From positions 1 to 58,651 of the forward strand of contig JAGWSB010000003.1 of NCBI GenBank assembly GCA_028876375.1: a stretch of 58,651 nucleotides of DNA, read 5' to 3'. Each line of letters starts with the position of its first letter. Position 1 is the first letter of the stretch. Positions 3,800-11,156 of this stretch are shown one piece after another. Both the position numbers and the translations under genes were made by a program. The stretch comes from Chloroflexota bacterium. Its GTDB lineage: Bacteria > Chloroflexota > Limnocylindria > P2-11E. The notes under the pieces were generated by a model. The model did no database searches and had not been told where the DNA came from. It worked only from the letters and a program-made list of their open reading frames with translations.

Positions 3800-4165
3800 C
3801 TAGCGGCGCTTCTCCCGAAGGGTGGCGGCTTTTCCGACGCGCTCTCTGAGGAAATAGAGGGCCGCTCGTCTCGCGTGGCCGTGCCGCGTGACCTCGATCT
3901 TCTCGACGCGCGGCGAGTGGAGCATGAACGTTCGCTCGACGCCGACGCCGCTCGCGACACGGCGGACCGTCACCTGCTCGTCCAGCCCGCCGCCGCGCAC
4001 CCGCAGGACGGTGCCCTCGAAGTTCTGCAGCCGCTCCCGGTTGCCCTCGATGACGCGCACGGAAACGCGGACCGTATCTCCCGGACGGATCTCCGGGAGA
4101 TCGGTCTTCATCTGCTCCTGGGCAAGCTGCTTGAGGGCGTCTTCCATCGTCAATGTCATCGTCAC
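3800..4165 (-). CDS. rplS: 50S ribosomal protein L19
   Basis: [31 protein letters not shown]...[26 protein letters not shown]. Confidence 0.97.
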
Positions 4166-4188
4166 GGGGCCGGTCGATCATATCAGAT

Positions 4189-5184
4189 CTAGGGCGTGGA
4201 CCTCCGCAGCCGGTCGATGATCGTCACGTGGGAGACGCCGAAGTGCTTCGCCAGCTCCCGGATCGTCATGCCGGTCTTGCGCATCCGGTGTACGTCGGCG
4301 GCTGTCGGAGCGCGCTGCGCGCCCCGGGCGGGGCGCATCCGAACGCCGGCGTCGCGCAGGCGCGCGCGGACGGTGGCGGGCGACATCCCGAATCGCGCGG
4401 CGATGCGATAGGACCCTATCCCGGACCGATAGGCCCGGATGAGCTCGTCGTCGCCGACGCGGGCGCGCGGCGTCACGGCCCGCGGCAGGCGGGCTCGCTC
4501 CTCCGGCGTCAGGTCGGCCGATGCGAGCAGGTCCGGTCGGCGCTCCGCCGTCCGCCTGATCGACTCGGATCGTCGCCACTCCGCGATCGCCTTGTGGTCG
4601 CCGGACAGCAGCACCGGGGGCACGCGGCTTCCCTCGTGCTCGACCGGCCGTGTGTACTGCGGACCCTCGAGCAGGCCGCCGGTGTGCGACTCCTGCTCGA
4701 GCGACGCCGCCTCGATGACCCCGGGCACGAGGCGCACCACGGCGTCGACGACCACCATCGACGGCAGCTCGCCGCCGGTGAGCACGTAATCGCCGATCGA
4801 CAGCTCTTCGTCGACGTCGCGCTCGACGACGCGCTCGTCGACGCCTTCGTAGTGCCCCGCGACGAGGACGAGGTGCGTGAGCGCGGCGAGCCGCCGGGCC
4901 GTCGGCTCGTCGAAGCGTCGCCCCTGCGCCGAGAGGAGGACGACGTGGCCGTCGCCGCCGCGGACCGAGCGGATCGCGCGGCTCAGCGGCTCCGGCCGCA
5001 TCACCATCCCCGGCCCGCCGCCGTAGGGGGTGTCATCGACCGTCCGATGCCGGTCGGTCGCCCAGTCGCGGATGTCGTGTACGTGGACGTCGACGAGCGC
5101 CGCGTCCTGCGCGCGCTTCAGGATGCTCTCCCCGAAGGGCCCCTCGAACATCCGCGGGAACAGGGTGAGCACGTCGACGCGCAT
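4189..5184 (-). CDS. trmD: tRNA (guanine-N1)-methyltransferase TrmD with C-terminal tandem HTH extension
   Basis: [60 protein letters not shown]; about 90 extra residues with two HTH-like repeats; TGATG overlap with rimM. Confidence 0.95.
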
Positions 5185-5690
5185 CACGCCTCCTCCTGCG
5201 GCGCGAGAACGATGCGTCCGGCGGCGAGGTCCACCTCGCGGACCACGGACTCGAGCATCGGGAAGAGCATCTCTCGCTCGCCGTCGCTCACGACCAGCAC
5301 GTCGGCGCCGCCGGCCCGCAGGATCTCGCGCACCTCTCCGAGGCGCTCTCCGCGAACGGTCAACGCCTCGAGGCCGATGAGGTCGTCCCACAGGTACTCG
5401 CCTTCGCGCCGGACCGCCGCGCGCGCCACGCGCAGCGCACGGTCGCGCAGCCTCTCCGCCGCGTCGCGGTCGACGATGCCCTCGAACGCGACGATCGGCG
5501 CGTCGTCCGTCCCGCGCACGGAGGCGACGCGGAGCGTCCCCTGATCGGTCCGAAGGACGGAGCCGACGCGAAAGCGCTCGGCGACGCGGTCGGTCATGGG
5601 CTCGACGCGTACTTCGCCACGGACGCCGTGCGGCGCGCGCACGACGCCGACGACGATCTCAGTCGATCTCGAGGTCGACCTTCGCGCCAT
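5184..5690 (-). CDS. rimM: 16S rRNA processing protein RimM
   Basis: [18 protein letters not shown]...[12 protein letters not shown]...GGADVLVV...[13 protein letters not shown]. Confidence 0.94.
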
Positions 5691-5901
5691 CGCGCGTCGC
5701 CACCACCTTCAGCAGCGCCCGGACGGCCTTCGCCATCCGGCCCCCGCGGCCGATGACCTTGCCGACGTCCGGCTCGCCGACGCCCAGGTGGAGCTTCAGG
5801 ATGTCGTGGTCCGTCGTCTCGGTGACGACCACGGCGCTGGGGTCCTCGACCAGCTGTCGAGCGATGTGCTCGAGGACCTTTCCCTCGCGCGTCTCGGTCA
5901 T
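5659..5901 (-). CDS. khpA: KH-domain RNA-binding protein KhpA
   Basis: LVEDPSAVVV...DVGKVIGRGGRMAKAVRALL; conserved rpsP-khpA-rimM order. Confidence 0.92.
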   Translation of the reverse strand: MTETREGKVLEHIARQLVEDPSAVVVTETTDHDILKLHLGVGEPDVGKVIGRGGRMAKAVRALLKVVATRDGAKVDLEID

Positions 5902-6167
5902 CGGATGACCGGCGGGACCTCGGCGTCGGGGATGCCGGCCTTCACGAGAAGATCACGCGCGGTCTCGGTCGGCTTGGCGCCGGTCTTGAACCAATGCTTC
6001 GCGCGGTCGAGGTCGACGACCAGCTCGACGGGCTCGCGGCGCGGGTCGTAGTGGCCGAGCGTCTCGATGAAGCGGCCATTGCGGGGCGCGCGGGAGTCGG
6101 CCACGACCAGCCGATACGTCGGCTGCTTCGTCTTCCCTTGGCGGCGCAGGCGGATATGTACGGACAC
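5898..6167 (-). CDS. rpsP: 30S ribosomal protein S16
   Basis: GTG at 6167 after SD GGAGG: VHIRLRRQGKTKQPTYRLVVADSRAPRNGRFIETLGHYDP. Confidence 0.96.
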   Translation of the reverse strand: MSVHIRLRRQGKTKQPTYRLVVADSRAPRNGRFIETLGHYDPRREPVELVVDLDRAKHWFKTGAKPTETARDLLVKAGIPDAEVPPVIR

Positions 6168-6169
6168 AG

Positions 6170-7474
6170 CTACCTCCGGAGAGGTAAATGGTACGGCAGG
6201 CGCCCACCCTTGGCCATTCCGCCCAGCTGCTTCATCAGCTTCTTCATCTCCTCGAACTGCCGGAGGAGCTGATTGACGTCGGCGACCGTCGTCCCGGAGC
6301 CGCGGGCGATCCGCTTCCGCCGGGAGCCGTTGATGGTCGACGGATCGGCGCGCTCGCCGCGGGTCATCGACGAGATGATCGCCTCGACCTTCTTCAGCTC
6401 CTTCTCCGCCTCGGGGCCGCTGGGCATCTGCTTCGCCAGCTGCCCCATCCCGGGGATCATCTTGATCAGGTCGCCGATCGACCCCATCTTCTTGAGCTGC
6501 TGGAGCTGCTTGTAGAAGTCGTCGAGCGTGAAGCGCGCCTCGAAGAGCTTCTTCGCCTGCTCCTCGGCCTCCTTCTGGTCGACGACCTCTTGCGCCTTCT
6601 CGACGAGCGTCACGACGTCGCCCATGCCGAGGATCCGCTGCGCGAGCCGGTCGGGGTGGAAGACCTCGATCGCGTCGAGCTTCTCGCCCGTCCCCAGGAG
6701 CTTGACCGGTATCCCGGTCGCGGCGCGGATCGACAGCGAAGCGCCGCCGCGCGCGTCGCTGTCGACCTTCGCGAGCACGAGGCCGGTGATGGGCAGGCGC
6801 GCGTGGAACGCGGTCGCCGCGTCGACGGCGTCTTGTCCGGCCATCGCGTCGACGACCAGAAGGATCTCGTCCGGTTGCGTCGCGGCGACGATGGACTCGA
6901 CCTCGGACATCATCGCCTCGTCGATGTGGAGGCGGCCGGCCGTGTCGACGATGACGGTGTCCCCGCCCTCCAGCGGTACGTTCTTCGGATCCGCGCGCCG
7001 AACGGGTACGCCGAGCTGCTTCCCCAGCGCCTCGAGTTGATCCATCGCCGCCGGGCGGTGGATGTCCACGGTGACGAGCACCGGCTTCCGCCCCTGCTTG
7101 CGAAGGAGATTCGCGATCTTCGCCGAGCTCGTCGTCTTGCCGGACCCCTGCAGTCCGACCATGACGATGACGGTCGGCGGCGTCGCGGCGCGCGCCAGCG
7201 GCGAGGCCTCTGTGCCGAGCATCTCGACGAGGGCATCGTGCACGATCTTCACGACCTGCTGCGCGCCGGTGACGCTCTGGATCACCTGCTGGCCGATCGC
7301 CCGCTCGCGCACCGTCGCGACGAGCTGCTTGACCACCTTGAAGCTCACGTCGGCCTCGAGCAGCGCGACGCGCACGTCGCGCAGTGCCGCCTCGAGGTCG
7401 GCCTCCGTCACTCGCGGGCGTCCCTGCAGCGTCGCGAACGTCGCGGTCAGACGATCTTGGAGCTGCTCGAACAT
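6170..7474 (-). CDS. ffh: Signal recognition particle protein Ffh
   Basis: ALLEADVS, GLQGSGKTT, DTAGRL, DSDARGG, ILGMGDVVTLVEKA, M-domain SRRKRIARGSG. Confidence 0.97.
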   Translation of the reverse strand: MFEQLQDRLTATFATLQGRPRVTEADLEAALRDVRVALLEADVSFKVVKQLVATVRERAIGQQVIQSVTGAQQVVKIVHDALVEMLGTEASPLARAATPPTVIVMVGLQGSGKTTSSAKIANLLRKQGRKPVLVTVDIHRPAAMDQLEALGKQLGVPVRRADPKNVPLEGGDTVIVDTAGRLHIDEAMMSEVESIVAATQPDEILLVVDAMAGQDAVDAATAFHARLPITGLVLAKVDSDARGGASLSIRAATGIPVKLLGTGEKLDAIEVFHPDRLAQRILGMGDVVTLVEKAQEVVDQKEAEEQAKKLFEARFTLDDFYKQLQQLKKMGSIGDLIKMIPGMGQLAKQMPSGPEAEKELKKVEAIISSMTRGERADPSTINGSRRKRIARGSGTTVADVNQLLRQFEEMKKLMKQLGGMAKGGRLPYHLPLRR

Positions 7475-8376
7475 CAGGGACGCCCGAGCATAGCCGCGAC
7501 GTACGCGCGCGCATCCATCGGGACGAGGTCCTCCGCCTTCTCTCCCACGCCCAGCCAGCGGACGGGCAGCCCCAGATCGTTCGCGATGGCGAAGATCGCG
7601 CCTCCCTTCGCGGTGCCGTCGAGCTTCGTGACGACGAGGCCCGTCACCTTCGCCGCCTTGGTGAACTCGCGCGCCTGCACGATCGCGTTCTGTCCCTGCG
7701 TTCCGTCGAGGACGAGAAGCACCTCGTCCGGCGCGCCCTCACGCGCGCGGCCGGCGACGCGGACGACCTTCTCGAGCTCGTCCATGAGATGACCCTTGGT
7801 GTGCAGCCGGCCCGCCGTGTCGGCGATGACGACGCTGTTCCCGCGCGACCGCGCGGCCTGGATCGCGTCGAACACGACCGCGGCCGGATCGCCGCCGGGC
7901 CGGCCGCTGACGATCGGCAGCCCCGTCCGTCCCGCCCAGCTCTCGAGCTGCTCGATCGCCGCGGCGCGGAAGGTGTCCGCCGCCGCCAGGAGGGGCGTCG
8001 CGCCCTCGTCGCGCATGCGCTTCCCGAGCTTCGCCGCGGTCGTCGTCTTGCCGCTCCCGTTGACGCCGACGACGAGGATCACCCGCGGCGTGCCGCCCGC
8101 CGCCGGCGGCGCCGGCGGGATGACCGCGACGAGCGCGTCGCGCACGGCGTCGAGCACCTTGGGGACCGTCGTCGCCCGTCCCTCGGCCACGACGTCGCGC
8201 ACCTGCAGCATCACCGGGTCGACGAGCGACACGGACAGATCCGCTCGGAGGAGCGCCTCCTCGAGGCGATCGAGCCACTCGTCGCTGACGGGCTCCTCCT
8301 CCGGCTTACGGAACGCGCCGAAGAGCCGGGAGATGAGGCCGCCTCTCGTCTTTTCGAGGCCCTGCTCGATGCTCAT
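7474..8376 (-). CDS. ftsY: SRP receptor FtsY
   Basis: GVNGSGKTTT, AADTFRAAAIEQL, DTAGRLHT, TKLDGTAKGG, GVGEKAEDL. Confidence 0.96.
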   Translation of the reverse strand: MSIEQGLEKTRGGLISRLFGAFRKPEEEPVSDEWLDRLEEALLRADLSVSLVDPVMLQVRDVVAEGRATTVPKVLDAVRDALVAVIPPAPPAAGGTPRVILVVGVNGSGKTTTAAKLGKRMRDEGATPLLAAADTFRAAAIEQLESWAGRTGLPIVSGRPGGDPAAVVFDAIQAARSRGNSVVIADTAGRLHTKGHLMDELEKVVRVAGRAREGAPDEVLLVLDGTQGQNAIVQAREFTKAAKVTGLVVTKLDGTAKGGAIFAIANDLGLPVRWLGVGEKAEDLVPMDARAYVAAMLGRP

Positions 8377-11156
8377 GCGCCGGCGGCGCGACGAGCCTCC
8401 GAGAGCTTCATCGAGATCACCTTGGAGACGCCGCCCTCGTCCATGGACACACCGTACATGGTGTCGGCGGCCTCGATCGTCCCGCGGTTGTGCGTGATGA
8501 CGATGAACTGCGTGCGGTCCGTCAGCTCGCGCAGCGCTTCGGTGAACCGTCCGACGTTGCGCTCGTCGAGCGCGGCGTCGACCTCGTCGAGGACGCAGAA
8601 CGGCGCGGGCCGCACGCGAAGGATGGCCAGGAGAAGAGCGACCGCGGTGAGCGCGCGCTCGCCCCCGGACAGCTGGGTGAGGCTGCCGATGCGCTTCCCG
8701 GGCGGCCGCGCGACGATGTCGATCCCGACGTCCTCGGGATCCGCGCTCGTGCGCAGCCGCGCCTCGCCGCCGTTGAACAGGCGCTGGAAGAAGATCCCGA
8801 ACTCGTGGTCGACGGCCTGGAGCGTCGTCGAGAACTGCTCCGCGATCGTCGTCGCGAGCTCCTCGGCGAGGGCGCGGAGGTCGGCGATCGCTTTCTCCAG
8901 GTCGTCCTTCTGCGTCGTGAGGAAGTCGTGCCGCTGGCCGATGTCCGCGAGCTCCGTCGCCGCCAGCGGGTTGACCGGCTCGAGCGAGATCAGCTTCCGC
9001 CGCAGACGCTGGAGGTCGCGCACGACGTTCTTCTCGTCGACGGGACCCTCGTCCTGGGCTTCGAGGCTCTCCGGGTCGGGCAGCGGCTCGTCGTCCGCCA
9101 GCCCCAGCTCCGCTCTCACCTGCTCTTCCAACAGCCGCAGCGCGCCGCTCGCGCGCTCTTCCTCGACGGCGAGCTTGGACCGCTCCCCGCGCAGCTCGGC
9201 GAGCCGCTCCCGCGCCCGCGCGAGCCGCTGCTCGGACTCGCGGCGCGACCCTTCCGCGGCCAGCGCGCGCTGCCGCGCGATCTCGGCCGAGCGCTCCGCC
9301 TCGCGCGCCTGCGCCGACGCGACGCCGAGCTCGTTCTGCGCCGCCGCGAGGCGCGCCCGCGCGTCGCGCTCCTGCTCCTCGAGCGTGCGCGCGCGCTCGT
9401 CCTCGTCGGCGATGCGCTTCTCGGTCGCCGCGATCTGCTCGTCGAGCGTGTCCCGCAGCCGCACCAGCGACGCGCGCCGCTCCTCGCTCGTCGCCGCCTC
9501 GAGCCGCGCGTCCTCGGCGCTCTTCGTCGCCGTCGCGTGCGCGTCGAAGGCGGCGCGCTCGATCGCCTCAGCCGCCGCGACGTCGGCGGAGCCTTCCGGC
9601 ACGTCGATGTGGATCCGCTCGACGAGCTCCGCGAGGGCGCGCCCCGCGCCGCTGATGTGCACGACGCCGCCGCTCGCGACGAAGCCGTCCTTCGTCACGC
9701 CGATGCCCCCGTTCCGCGCGACGGCGAGCGCCGTGCGACGGTCGGGCGCGAGGGTGACGTTCAGGGCTCCGGTGTCGTCCGGCAGGAACACGGACACTCC
9801 GCGCACGCGCAGGTTGAGCACGGCGGCGTGGGTCGACGCGGTGGCCATGCCCTCACCGAACTCGCTCGCCCACTTCACGCCGGCCGGAAGCTCACCCTTC
9901 AGCTCGCGCTCGACGGCCGCGACCGCCTCGCGCAGCTCGGCCGCCTGGCCGCGCAGCAGCGTCTCGACGCGCTGCGCCTGCGCCTCGGCCAGCGCGACGC
10001 GCGTGCGCGACGCCTCCTCCTCGGCGACGCGCGCGGCGTCGGCGGACTCGCGCGCCCGGCGCGCGGCCGCGAGCGCCTCTTCGTCGTGGCCGCTCCGCTT
10101 GGCGCGGAGCTGCGCGAGCTCGCCGGGCAGGGTCGCAAGCGCGTGGCGCGAGCGCTCGCGCTCATGCGCGACGGCCTCGATGCTCGCGCCCGTGGCGGCG
10201 ATCCGCTCGCGCACCGCGGACTCGGCGGCGAGCGCGTCCGAGAGGCCGATGCGCCGCTTCTCCTCTTCCTCACGGGCCTCGCGCAGCTCCTCGTCGCTCA
10301 CGGCGCCGGCGGAGCCGATCTCGTCGATCCGATCCTCGAGGCGGCCGACCTCGGCGTCGGTGCTCGCGAGCTTCGCGACGAGCTCGGCGCGCGTCTTCGC
10401 CGTCTCGCCGAAGGAGCTGCGGTACCAGCGGATGGCCTTGCGGCGCAGCTCGTTGCGGATGGTCTCGTACTCCTGCCACTTCGCGGCCTGCTCGCGCAGC
10501 ATCTCCACCCGCGGCCCGATCTCGCGGAGGATGTCGACGACGCGCACGAGCTCGGCCTCGGCGCCCTTGAGGCGCTGCAGCGCGTCCTCCCTTCGCTCGT
10601 GCAGCCGCCGCACGCCGGCCGCTTCCTCGATCACGAGCCGCCGCTCCGAGGGACGCAGCGCGAGCACCTGGTCGACGAGGCCCTGCCCGATGAAGGTGAA
10701 CGGGTTGTCGGCGAGGTTCGCGCCGGCCAGCAGCTCCTCCATGTCGCGCAGGCGCACGCGCGCGCCGTTGATGAGGTACTCGGATTGGCCGTCGCGATAG
10801 ATGCGCCGTCCGATCTCGACCTCCGTGAAGTCGATGGGCAGGCGCCGCGACGTGTTGTCGACGTGGAGGATGACCTCGGCCATGCCGAGGCTGCGCCGCG
10901 TCTCCGAGCCGCCGAAGATGAGCTCCTCGCTCTTCTTCGCGCGCAGGTGGCGCGGGTTCGTCTCGGCGAGCACCCAGCGGATCGACTCGCCGAGCACCGA
11001 CTTCCCCGAGCCGTTCGGGCCGATGATCGCGGTGATGCCGGGCGCGAACTCGATCGTCGTCTTGTTCATGAACGACTTGAACCCGACGATCGTCGCCGTG
11101 CGGAGCACCGCGCCGGGCCGCGCGCCGCCCTCGATCACCCGCAGCTCATTCGTCAC
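8373..11156 (-). CDS. smc: Chromosome segregation ATPase SMC, unusually short (927 aa)
   Basis: GFKSF, Walker A GPNGSGKS, signature LSGGE, FCVLDEVDAALD, FIVITH; long coiled coils; reduced hinge-like middle; rnc-smc-ftsY synteny. Confidence 0.93.
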   Translation of the reverse strand: MTNELRVIEGGARPGAVLRTATIVGFKSFMNKTTIEFAPGITAIIGPNGSGKSVLGESIRWVLAETNPRHLRAKKSEELIFGGSETRRSLGMAEVILHVDNTSRRLPIDFTEVEIGRRIYRDGQSEYLINGARVRLRDMEELLAGANLADNPFTFIGQGLVDQVLALRPSERRLVIEEAAGVRRLHERREDALQRLKGAEAELVRVVDILREIGPRVEMLREQAAKWQEYETIRNELRRKAIRWYRSSFGETAKTRAELVAKLASTDAEVGRLEDRIDEIGSAGAVSDEELREAREEEEKRRIGLSDALAAESAVRERIAATGASIEAVAHERERSRHALATLPGELAQLRAKRSGHDEEALAAARRARESADAARVAEEEASRTRVALAEAQAQRVETLLRGQAAELREAVAAVERELKGELPAGVKWASEFGEGMATASTHAAVLNLRVRGVSVFLPDDTGALNVTLAPDRRTALAVARNGGIGVTKDGFVASGGVVHISGAGRALAELVERIHIDVPEGSADVAAAEAIERAAFDAHATATKSAEDARLEAATSEERRASLVRLRDTLDEQIAATEKRIADEDERARTLEEQERDARARLAAAQNELGVASAQAREAERSAEIARQRALAAEGSRRESEQRLARARERLAELRGERSKLAVEEERASGALRLLEEQVRAELGLADDEPLPDPESLEAQDEGPVDEKNVVRDLQRLRRKLISLEPVNPLAATELADIGQRHDFLTTQKDDLEKAIADLRALAEELATTIAEQFSTTLQAVDHEFGIFFQRLFNGGEARLRTSADPEDVGIDIVARPPGKRIGSLTQLSGGERALTAVALLLAILRVRPAPFCVLDEVDAALDERNVGRFTEALRELTDRTQFIVITHNRGTIEAADTMYGVSMDEGGVSKVISMKLSEARRAAGA

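Follow-up and report, generated by a model that had tools for sequence, protein, structure and literature searches.

What are two helix-turn-helix (HTH) domains doing at the end of an essential tRNA-modifying enzyme, and are they there by selection or by accident? The question is raised by the trmD gene on the minus strand of a 58,651-nucleotide (nt) stretch of DNA (the window: positions 1 to 58,651, forward strand, of contig JAGWSB010000003.1 in assembly GCA_028876375.1) from a Chloroflexota bacterium of Candidatus Limnocylindria, whose genome is a metagenome-assembled draft of 134 contigs. TrmD, the tRNA m1G37 methyltransferase, is a homodimer, universal and essential in bacteria and an antibiotic target; the modification prevents +1 frameshifting, and the architecture of the enzyme is among the most uniform of those that modify tRNA. 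In the window its reading frame runs 95 residues past the normal TrmD end (4192-4479), and this tail carries two tandem HTH units. Comparison with relatives shows a genuine domain fusion, fixed long ago, whose HTH units are under stronger purifying selection than the catalytic core. The reading that we favour, at a probability of roughly 0.55, is that the tail serves as a bipartite module on a flexible tether and binds nucleic acid, most likely double-stranded DNA, with TrmD itself tethered or moonlighting. The gene and its parts are:

4189..5184, minus strand: trmD-HTH coding sequence, 331 amino acids (aa) plus TAG stop (4191-4189), ATG at 5184, the genome's sole trmD (open reading frame and translation)
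4480..5184, minus strand: TrmD core, residues 1-235, SPOUT catalytic domain plus helical C-terminal domain
4456..4479, minus strand: junction linker, residues 236-243, variable and predicted to be disordered
4336..4455, minus strand: HTH unit 1, residues 244-283, three predicted helices with Pfam HTH matches
4303..4335, minus strand: basic inter-unit linker, residues 284-294, of fixed length
4201..4302, minus strand: HTH unit 2, residues 295-328, three predicted helices, with the best Pfam HTH stretches at 295-330

Translation of the window gives 331 codons without an internal stop. A sequence-only reading of the window had described a frame continuing about 90 aa beyond the normal end of TrmD and ending in two tandem HTH repeats; its coordinates were correct, and the repeats are borne out both by Pfam thresholds and by predicted structure. 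On the whole protein, four HTH models of Pfam score above their gathering thresholds (HTH_23, 27.9 against 24.6; HTH_7, 25.0 against 23.8; HTH_10, 24.5 against 23.1; HTH_psq, 23.7 against 20.4), and the scores rise when the tail alone is the query, the sub-family assignment being ambiguous. By these matches the tail belongs to the helix-turn-helix clan, of homeodomain-like or resolvase type, with the same ambiguity as to sub-family. Compared with each other, the two units share 32% identity over 31 aa. AlphaFold2 places helices at residues 245-253, 258-265 and 269-278 in unit 1 and at 295-302, 308-315 and 319-327 in unit 2; mean predicted local distance difference test (pLDDT) values are 89 for the whole protein (109-sequence alignment) and 81 for the tail alone, and two three-helix bundles appear in both models, with block values of about 80-92. 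Confidence falls below 50 at the junction (238-240) and in the inter-unit linker (286-290), and the predicted template modelling score of the whole protein is 0.68: as modelled, the tail is a set of beads on a string and not a docked domain. It is also strongly basic, with 22 Lys and Arg against 7 Asp and Glu in about 90 residues, for a net charge of about +15. A separately started tail protein was considered and rejected, since the variable junction has no conserved start codon or Shine-Dalgarno sequence.

The enzyme half is, by comparison with solved structures, an ordinary and presumably active TrmD, since its S-adenosylmethionine (AdoMet) loops and catalytic residues are intact and the genome has no other trmD: a profile search found one TrmD match, hence a single copy. 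Residues 1-228 exceed the TrmD equivalog cut-offs (NF000648, 306 bits against 220; TIGR00088, 299.1 bits against 195), PF01746 scores 209 bits on the whole protein (cut-off 27.3, E=5e-62), and alignment to solved TrmDs (E about 5e-66) reaches residue 236, the alignment to the Haemophilus influenzae enzyme (4MCB) marking the normal TrmD end. The residues checked, in H. influenzae numbering, were G113-x-Y115-E116, S132-I-G134..G140-G141..P144, R154, acidic 169 and acidic 177. The AdoMet loops, including GxYEG, are kept in the alignment to 4MCB, and the catalytic counterparts are R151 for R154, E165 for D169 and E173 for D177; in an alignment of 109 TrmDs, some of them canonical, E165 and E173 each reach at least 90% conservation. 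In the AlphaFold2 monomer model the core has block pLDDT values above 90 almost throughout and the expected order of secondary structure. By charge count it is net acidic.

The simplest dismissal of the tail would be that it is a recent accident (loss of a stop codon, or an assembly or frame error) and thus an unconstrained read-through into the spacer between trmD and rplS. GC-rich DNA does yield long open frames easily, and the genome is a draft in many contigs; the distribution of the tail nevertheless leaves this idea with almost no probability. The fusion is kept in frame in 88 of the 94 species genomes of the window's order (whole-genome searches), independently assembled and from two families, as well as in hundreds of metagenome proteins. 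All 21 high-quality genomes of the order carry it, as do all 10 genera and both families. In all 38 order genomes with uncut contigs in a class-level sample, and in the window, the whole-protein match runs from residue 1-3 to residue 328-331 with no stops. Of the six genomes without a tail match, two have trmD cut by a contig end and the other four are metagenome-assembled genomes (MAGs) 58-74% complete. Beyond the order the tail disappears: none of 80 sampled genomes from other orders of the class has it, their TrmD ending at about residues 220-260 in a different, acidic peptide, with no HTH-like sequence downstream in any frame in the sister orders.

Selection tells the same story. Median pairwise ratios of nonsynonymous to synonymous substitution (dN/dS; Nei-Gojobori, codon alignment of 44 distinct species-level sequences) are, along the protein:

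core (residues 1-215): 0.22
last TrmD helices: 0.24
junction linker (residues 239-246): 0.60
HTH1: 0.09
inter-unit linker: 0.30
HTH2: 0.16

The HTH units are under stronger purifying selection than the catalytic core. Over residues 247-328, inter-unit linker included, the 44 species sequences show no insertions or deletions (indels), and 84 metagenome proteins show just one deletion, of 1 aa. The predicted recognition helices of both units are the most conserved parts of the tail, near-invariant across the order; in HTH2, "GVSHVT" is invariant in the 44 sequences and "GVSHVTI[IL]DRL" almost so. The junction, by contrast, carries indels, and in the second family (f83) it is 19 aa shorter, lacking even the last canonical TrmD helix. 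Because the region 247-328 has no indels and yet the junction varies by 19 aa, the tail would seem to be an independent, tethered module, its two sites held in a fixed geometry to each other: the alignments indicate that the placement of HTH1 relative to HTH2 matters, and that of the tail relative to the core does not. Entropy at fourfold-degenerate sites in the tail is ordinary (1.1-1.4 bits, with a slight drop in the last window only), so that it is the protein that is constrained; an overlapping DNA element within the tail coding region was rejected for that reason. Taken together, in-frame conservation, low dN/dS, the lack of tail indels, HTH models over their thresholds and a confidently predicted fold refute a recent stop loss followed by unconstrained extension. 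The sequence-only reading had allowed for just such a recent fusion through stop-codon loss; what relatives carry is not a stop after the core but an HTH part in frame and under purifying selection, fixed across an order of two families with dN/dS below that of the core.

Where did the tail come from? A single gain in the ancestor of the order is the simplest history. A tail hidden Markov model (HMM) found nothing better than E=0.4 in six-frame translations of 14 sister-order loci, so that an origin by stop loss into an HTH gene whose relic would lie downstream of sister-order trmD was rejected; apparent long matches in sister orders came from reading past stops into unrelated sequence. A second tail copy in one genome (G325) and two weak matches in the window's own genome (G000) were likewise dismissed as Arg-rich or insignificant frames. 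A protein database search with the tail alone matched 489 proteins, the best 120 of which all carry PF01746 and all but three also HTH models, most being about 330 aa long; several of the matched proteins are labelled as TrmD of Chloroflexota MAGs, the sequences being publicly annotated simply as TrmD, and the closest genomic loci bear record titles naming Candidatus Limnocylindria. Across 401 genomes of the phylum the sole further matches were weak (35-44% identity): small stand-alone proteins of the same two units, collinear with the tail. Other Chloroflexota families (L006 1429-1761; L007, L009) have stand-alone two-HTH proteins about 105 aa long with 35-38% identity to the TrmD tail, and such proteins are possible relatives of the donor gene. 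One more candidate was YlxM/p13 (UPF0122, PF04297), the HTH protein of the ffh operon in Bacillota, displaced into the tail. It was rejected because the family is absent from the class: PF04297 has no match over its cut-off in 121 class genomes, while control genomes do match, and it is not among the 25 best Pfam matches of the tail.

Wider searches place the tail in a much larger company. Searched exhaustively with phmmer, 1.84 billion representatives yielded 2,736 matches, 249 of them at E<=1e-10. The top matches other than TrmD are proteins of 160-1,557 aa with 3-12 matched stretches, that is, arrays of a unit of about 50 aa with the consensus "P.EEI...Y.SG.S...LA.KYGVS..TI.NRLRE.GV..RP.R", and by this match the tail consists of two units of a widespread tandem HTH repeat. 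The array proteins themselves form a large unnamed family with 3 to about 15 tandem repeats and lengths up to 1,557 aa (P0121, P0122, P0124, P0129, P0141, P0149, P0201), for which Pfam gives overlapping generic HTH matches only. On a 52-kb phage-like contig (L169 4665-6942) three array paralogues of 444, 159 and 116 aa are nearly adjoining, with only a 37-aa open reading frame between, and sit among small co-directional genes. PHROG families matched by the tail include a D5-like transcriptional regulator, an HNH endonuclease and an HTH DNA-binding protein; the endonuclease matches cover 20-70 tail residues and fall in the HTH part of those families. The stand-alone Chloroflexota relative matches phage HNH endonuclease PHROGs at E about 1e-10. 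In fold searches the best matches in BFVD, a set of viral models, are phage endonucleases (E=3e-4) and phage HTH proteins of about 110 aa (template modelling, or TM, score up to 0.62), and the best PDB matches, all weak, are Cbp2 (2LVS) followed by the bipartite DNA-binding domains of SETMAR/Mos1/Tc3 and Pax; a PDB sequence search with the tail gave nothing significant (best E=0.2). By sequence and fold together, the tail stands nearest to the DNA-binding modules of phage HNH/LAGLIDADG homing endonucleases, small phage HTH proteins, IS30 and Tc1-mariner transposases, resolvases and Cbp2. The phage endonuclease, transposase, Pax and Cbp2 modules bind double-stranded DNA, one HTH to each major groove, with a basic linker between.

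From this material the favoured reading can be put as follows. The order's ancestor would have acquired the HTH pair in a single capture from a phage gene or mobile element. The tail would fold independently on its flexible tether and bind a nucleic-acid duplex at two adjacent sites, the HTHs occupying neighbouring major grooves, one each, while the conserved "GV+x+P.R" linker follows the backbone or the minor groove, an arrangement like that of Tc3, Pax and Cbp2. Since TrmD is a homodimer, each enzyme would present four HTH units. The ligand would be double-stranded DNA at a conserved site, and TrmD-HTH an enzyme that is either tethered to the chromosome or moonlights as a regulator in the manner of BirA and PutA, with methylation performed by the unchanged core. 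Double-stranded DNA is favoured because every identifiable relative of the tail is a DNA binder and because the variable tether argues against precise placement on tRNA in the active site. Several points tell against this reading. We infer DNA binding by the tail from its relatives, and the PDB fold matches, at E>=0.065 and TM about 0.35, are an architectural resemblance only, such low scores being expected for two beads on a flexible linker. Near-invariant recognition helices with dN/dS below that of the core would fit a universal ligand such as tRNA at least equally well, and that helical modules are able to bind tRNA is already seen from TrmD's own C-terminal domain, itself helical. Finally, no operator-like conserved DNA was found near the operon, and from smc to trmD there is almost no non-coding DNA.

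Might the tail then be an auxiliary domain for tRNA or other RNA? Its basic HTH units could clamp the helical part of the substrate tRNA, or some other structured RNA, and so raise affinity or alter substrate selection. We hold this to be the main alternative, though a less likely one. It would explain why a tail of charge +15 sits on a tRNA enzyme with a net acidic core, why there is one tail copy per genome and always on TrmD, and why no DNA operator was found; near-invariant recognition helices and an HTH1 dN/dS below the core's are what a ligand conserved like tRNA would lead one to expect. But all identifiable relatives in sequence or fold are mobile-element binders of double-stranded DNA, and a junction that is disordered, fast-evolving and 19 aa different between families is unexpected if the tail is positioned on the tRNA in the active site. 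TrmD elsewhere, sister orders included, also works without a tail, an extended anticodon stem-loop being all that its substrate need provide (established knowledge). High positive charge and a flexible tether would equally suit a non-specific anchor to the nucleoid or another polyanion, or a module for interaction with a protein such as RNA polymerase or the ribosome, either of which would localise TrmD; that the search turned up no specific target agrees with this. Such anchors are, however, usually of low complexity and fast-evolving, whereas here the recognition helices are the most conserved part, with dN/dS of 0.09-0.16 and no indels, a pattern typical of specific recognition, and we regard the anchor as improbable.

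If the preferred ligand is DNA, the nearest place to look for it is just downstream of the gene, where the 23-nt gap between trmD and rplS is the only nearby non-coding DNA, the genes from smc to trmD abutting or overlapping one another. The features there are:

4177..4185, minus strand: extended -10-like element TGATATGAT, just 3' of the trmD stop, probable rplS promoter
3800..4165, minus strand: rplS (ribosomal protein L19), probable GTG start 11 nt after the -10 element

The TATGAT that the sequence-only reading had noted past the stop as a -10-like element for rplS lies at 4182-4177, as it said; TG stands directly before it (4185-4184), which makes it an extended -10. In nearly all of 44 order genomes TAnnnT, mostly as CTGCTAnnnT, is found at the same position, and by this conservation the element is a probable rplS promoter; a sigma-70 consensus scan of the junction found no -35/-10 pair. 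CCCGTGA is conserved 11 nt past the -10, and all sequences inspected have its GTG in the L19 reading frame. A constant 29-32 nt separates the -10 from the conserved L19 Met, and no Shine-Dalgarno sequence is present (window 4163-4191, minus strand; order loci L004-L043, L120-L152). The rplS mRNA would thus appear to be leaderless or nearly so, a feature of this order only. Two loci of genus g221, in the same family (L127, L143), have a trmD-rplS gap much longer than in the rest of the order, L143 with about 70 nt extra before the -10-like element. In sister orders (L153-L166) a similar GCTATACT-type -10 stands 43-120 nt from the L19 start. Their rplS leader has a Shine-Dalgarno sequence and, in family f2, two hairpins: a 5' one that is conserved (TCGCGGCCGC..GCGGTCGCG) and another, showing compensatory changes, ahead of the Shine-Dalgarno sequence; an Rfam search of rplS leaders and junctions gave no match, and what the sister orders have here may be an L19 leader not yet described.

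By this mapping the tail was gained on the branch, and at the junction, where rplS lost its leader, and this shared branch and junction is what motivates a more elaborate reading: that TrmD-HTH is a bifunctional enzyme and transcription factor which controls L19 synthesis at or near the rplS promoter, its tail domesticated from a homing-endonuclease-like or phage gene that formerly lay at this junction, with competition from tRNA substrate or AdoMet coupling tRNA methylation to ribosome production. We think this quite improbable, more so than the anchor: the co-occurrence is a single coincidence and does not amount to evidence of a link. A junction operator was also sought in the repeats CGTGACGAT and ATCGACCGG, each of which occurs in the window in the HTH2 coding region and again after the -10, and was rejected: relatives do not keep the spacing, and the invariant codons for SHVTI account for the upstream copy. 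Of the sequence-only reading's proposal that this TrmD has acquired a DNA/RNA-binding or autoregulatory function, the first half stands as far as sequence can tell, in that a nucleic-acid-binding HTH domain has been added; autoregulation of the rpsP-rplS region gains nothing from the junction, which has no conserved operator-like element, or from the synonymous sites, which are ordinary.

The surroundings of the gene are otherwise conventional. Upstream of trmD lie ftsY, ffh, rpsP, a KH-domain gene and rimM, and downstream rplS and rnhB, so that the order rpsP-(KH)-rimM-trmD-rplS is kept as in the canonical context. The trmD ATG is preceded by a Shine-Dalgarno sequence, GGAGGAGG, and itself overlaps the rimM stop. 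From smc through ftsY, ffh, rpsP, the KH gene and rimM to trmD, genes abut or overlap at their start and stop codons (5184-11156, minus strand), which suggests one long translationally coupled unit without internal non-coding DNA. Elsewhere, the TrmD of a Clostridia MAG (RGIG2945; L115 608-2011) is another with a long C-terminal extension, 467 aa in total; the extra residues, about 220, have no Pfam match and include GNSMT and HPGDEG motifs reminiscent of SGNH/GDSL hydrolases.

What would a TrmD with such a tail mean? A fusion found order-wide, with a module held under tighter constraint than the catalytic core, implies that selection maintains a second activity, which could be a new mode of substrate recognition or could link tRNA m1G37 modification to the chromosome or to gene regulation. 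Either way, an essential enzyme of very uniform build has here received an addition that is clean, old and under strong selection; it documents how a core translation gene probably took up an HTH repeat from a phage or mobile element, and offers a handle on the large uncatalogued family of tandem arrays of the repeat of about 50 aa. Soil Candidatus Limnocylindria are an abundant lineage and, to our knowledge, uncultured; lineage-specific features of this kind are among the few functional clues available for them.

How far does TrmD-HTH resemble systems already known? With canonical bacterial TrmD (H. influenzae 4MCB/4YVI, E. coli 1P9P) it shares the full-length core, the AdoMet loops, R154, the acidic residues at 169 and 177, the operon context and single copy; it differs in that canonical enzymes are about 220-260 aa long with a short, often acidic end, and this one has 95 residues more and two HTH domains. 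The bipartite HTH domains of mobile elements (phage HNH/LAGLIDADG modules; Tc3/Mos1/SETMAR and IS30/IS630 transposase N-termini; resolvase/Hin) have the same two three-helix units and basic linker, and share with the TrmD tail a "G[VI]S..T[VI]..RL+" recognition-helix pattern (Pfam HTH_7, HTH_23, HTH_psq, HTH_38); by profile and by fold they match it best. Unlike those proteins, TrmD-HTH has no nuclease, transposase or recombinase domain: the HTH pair is C-terminal on a housekeeping enzyme and vertically inherited. Identity as a phage homing endonuclease (HNH, GIY-YIG, LAGLIDADG) was rejected because only TrmD and HTH models match the protein. Cbp1/Cbp2, the archaeal CRISPR DNA repeat-binding proteins (2LVS, NF040595), are likewise small and basic, with tandem homeodomain-like HTH units and basic linkers, and 2LVS, first among the PDB fold matches (E=0.065, TM 0.35), is also a weak sequence match that spans both units of the tail. 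The NF040595 score (20.3 bits for the whole protein, 24.7 bits for the tail alone) is far under the cut-off of 140, so that membership was rejected and the likeness is architectural only: Cbp1/Cbp2 are stand-alone archaeal binders of CRISPR repeats, whereas the TrmD tail is fused and bacterial.

The model for a moonlighting TrmD comes from bifunctional enzyme-repressors (BirA, PutA, NadR), each an enzyme with a small DNA-binding domain. In the biotin ligase BirA this domain is an N-terminal HTH. In trifunctional PutA it is of the ribbon-helix-helix (RHH) type (PMC5293562). None of the three is homologous to TrmD-HTH, and they have known operators, whereas for TrmD-HTH we infer DNA binding from relatives. 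As to TrmD itself, the sequence-only reading knew of no described TrmD-HTH architecture, and our search of the accessible literature likewise found no paper describing one. The only C-terminal TrmD fusion that it did find is TrmD-Tm1570 (PF01746-PF09936, PDB 8B1N; PMC11187310), in which the added domain is a second SPOUT methyltransferase. Both are C-terminal additions, though Tm1570 is not a DNA-binding module and the fusion occurs in other lineages; its existence shows that TrmD tolerates additions at this end. As an enzyme with an accreted nucleic-acid-binding domain, TrmD-HTH is an arrangement of a known kind.

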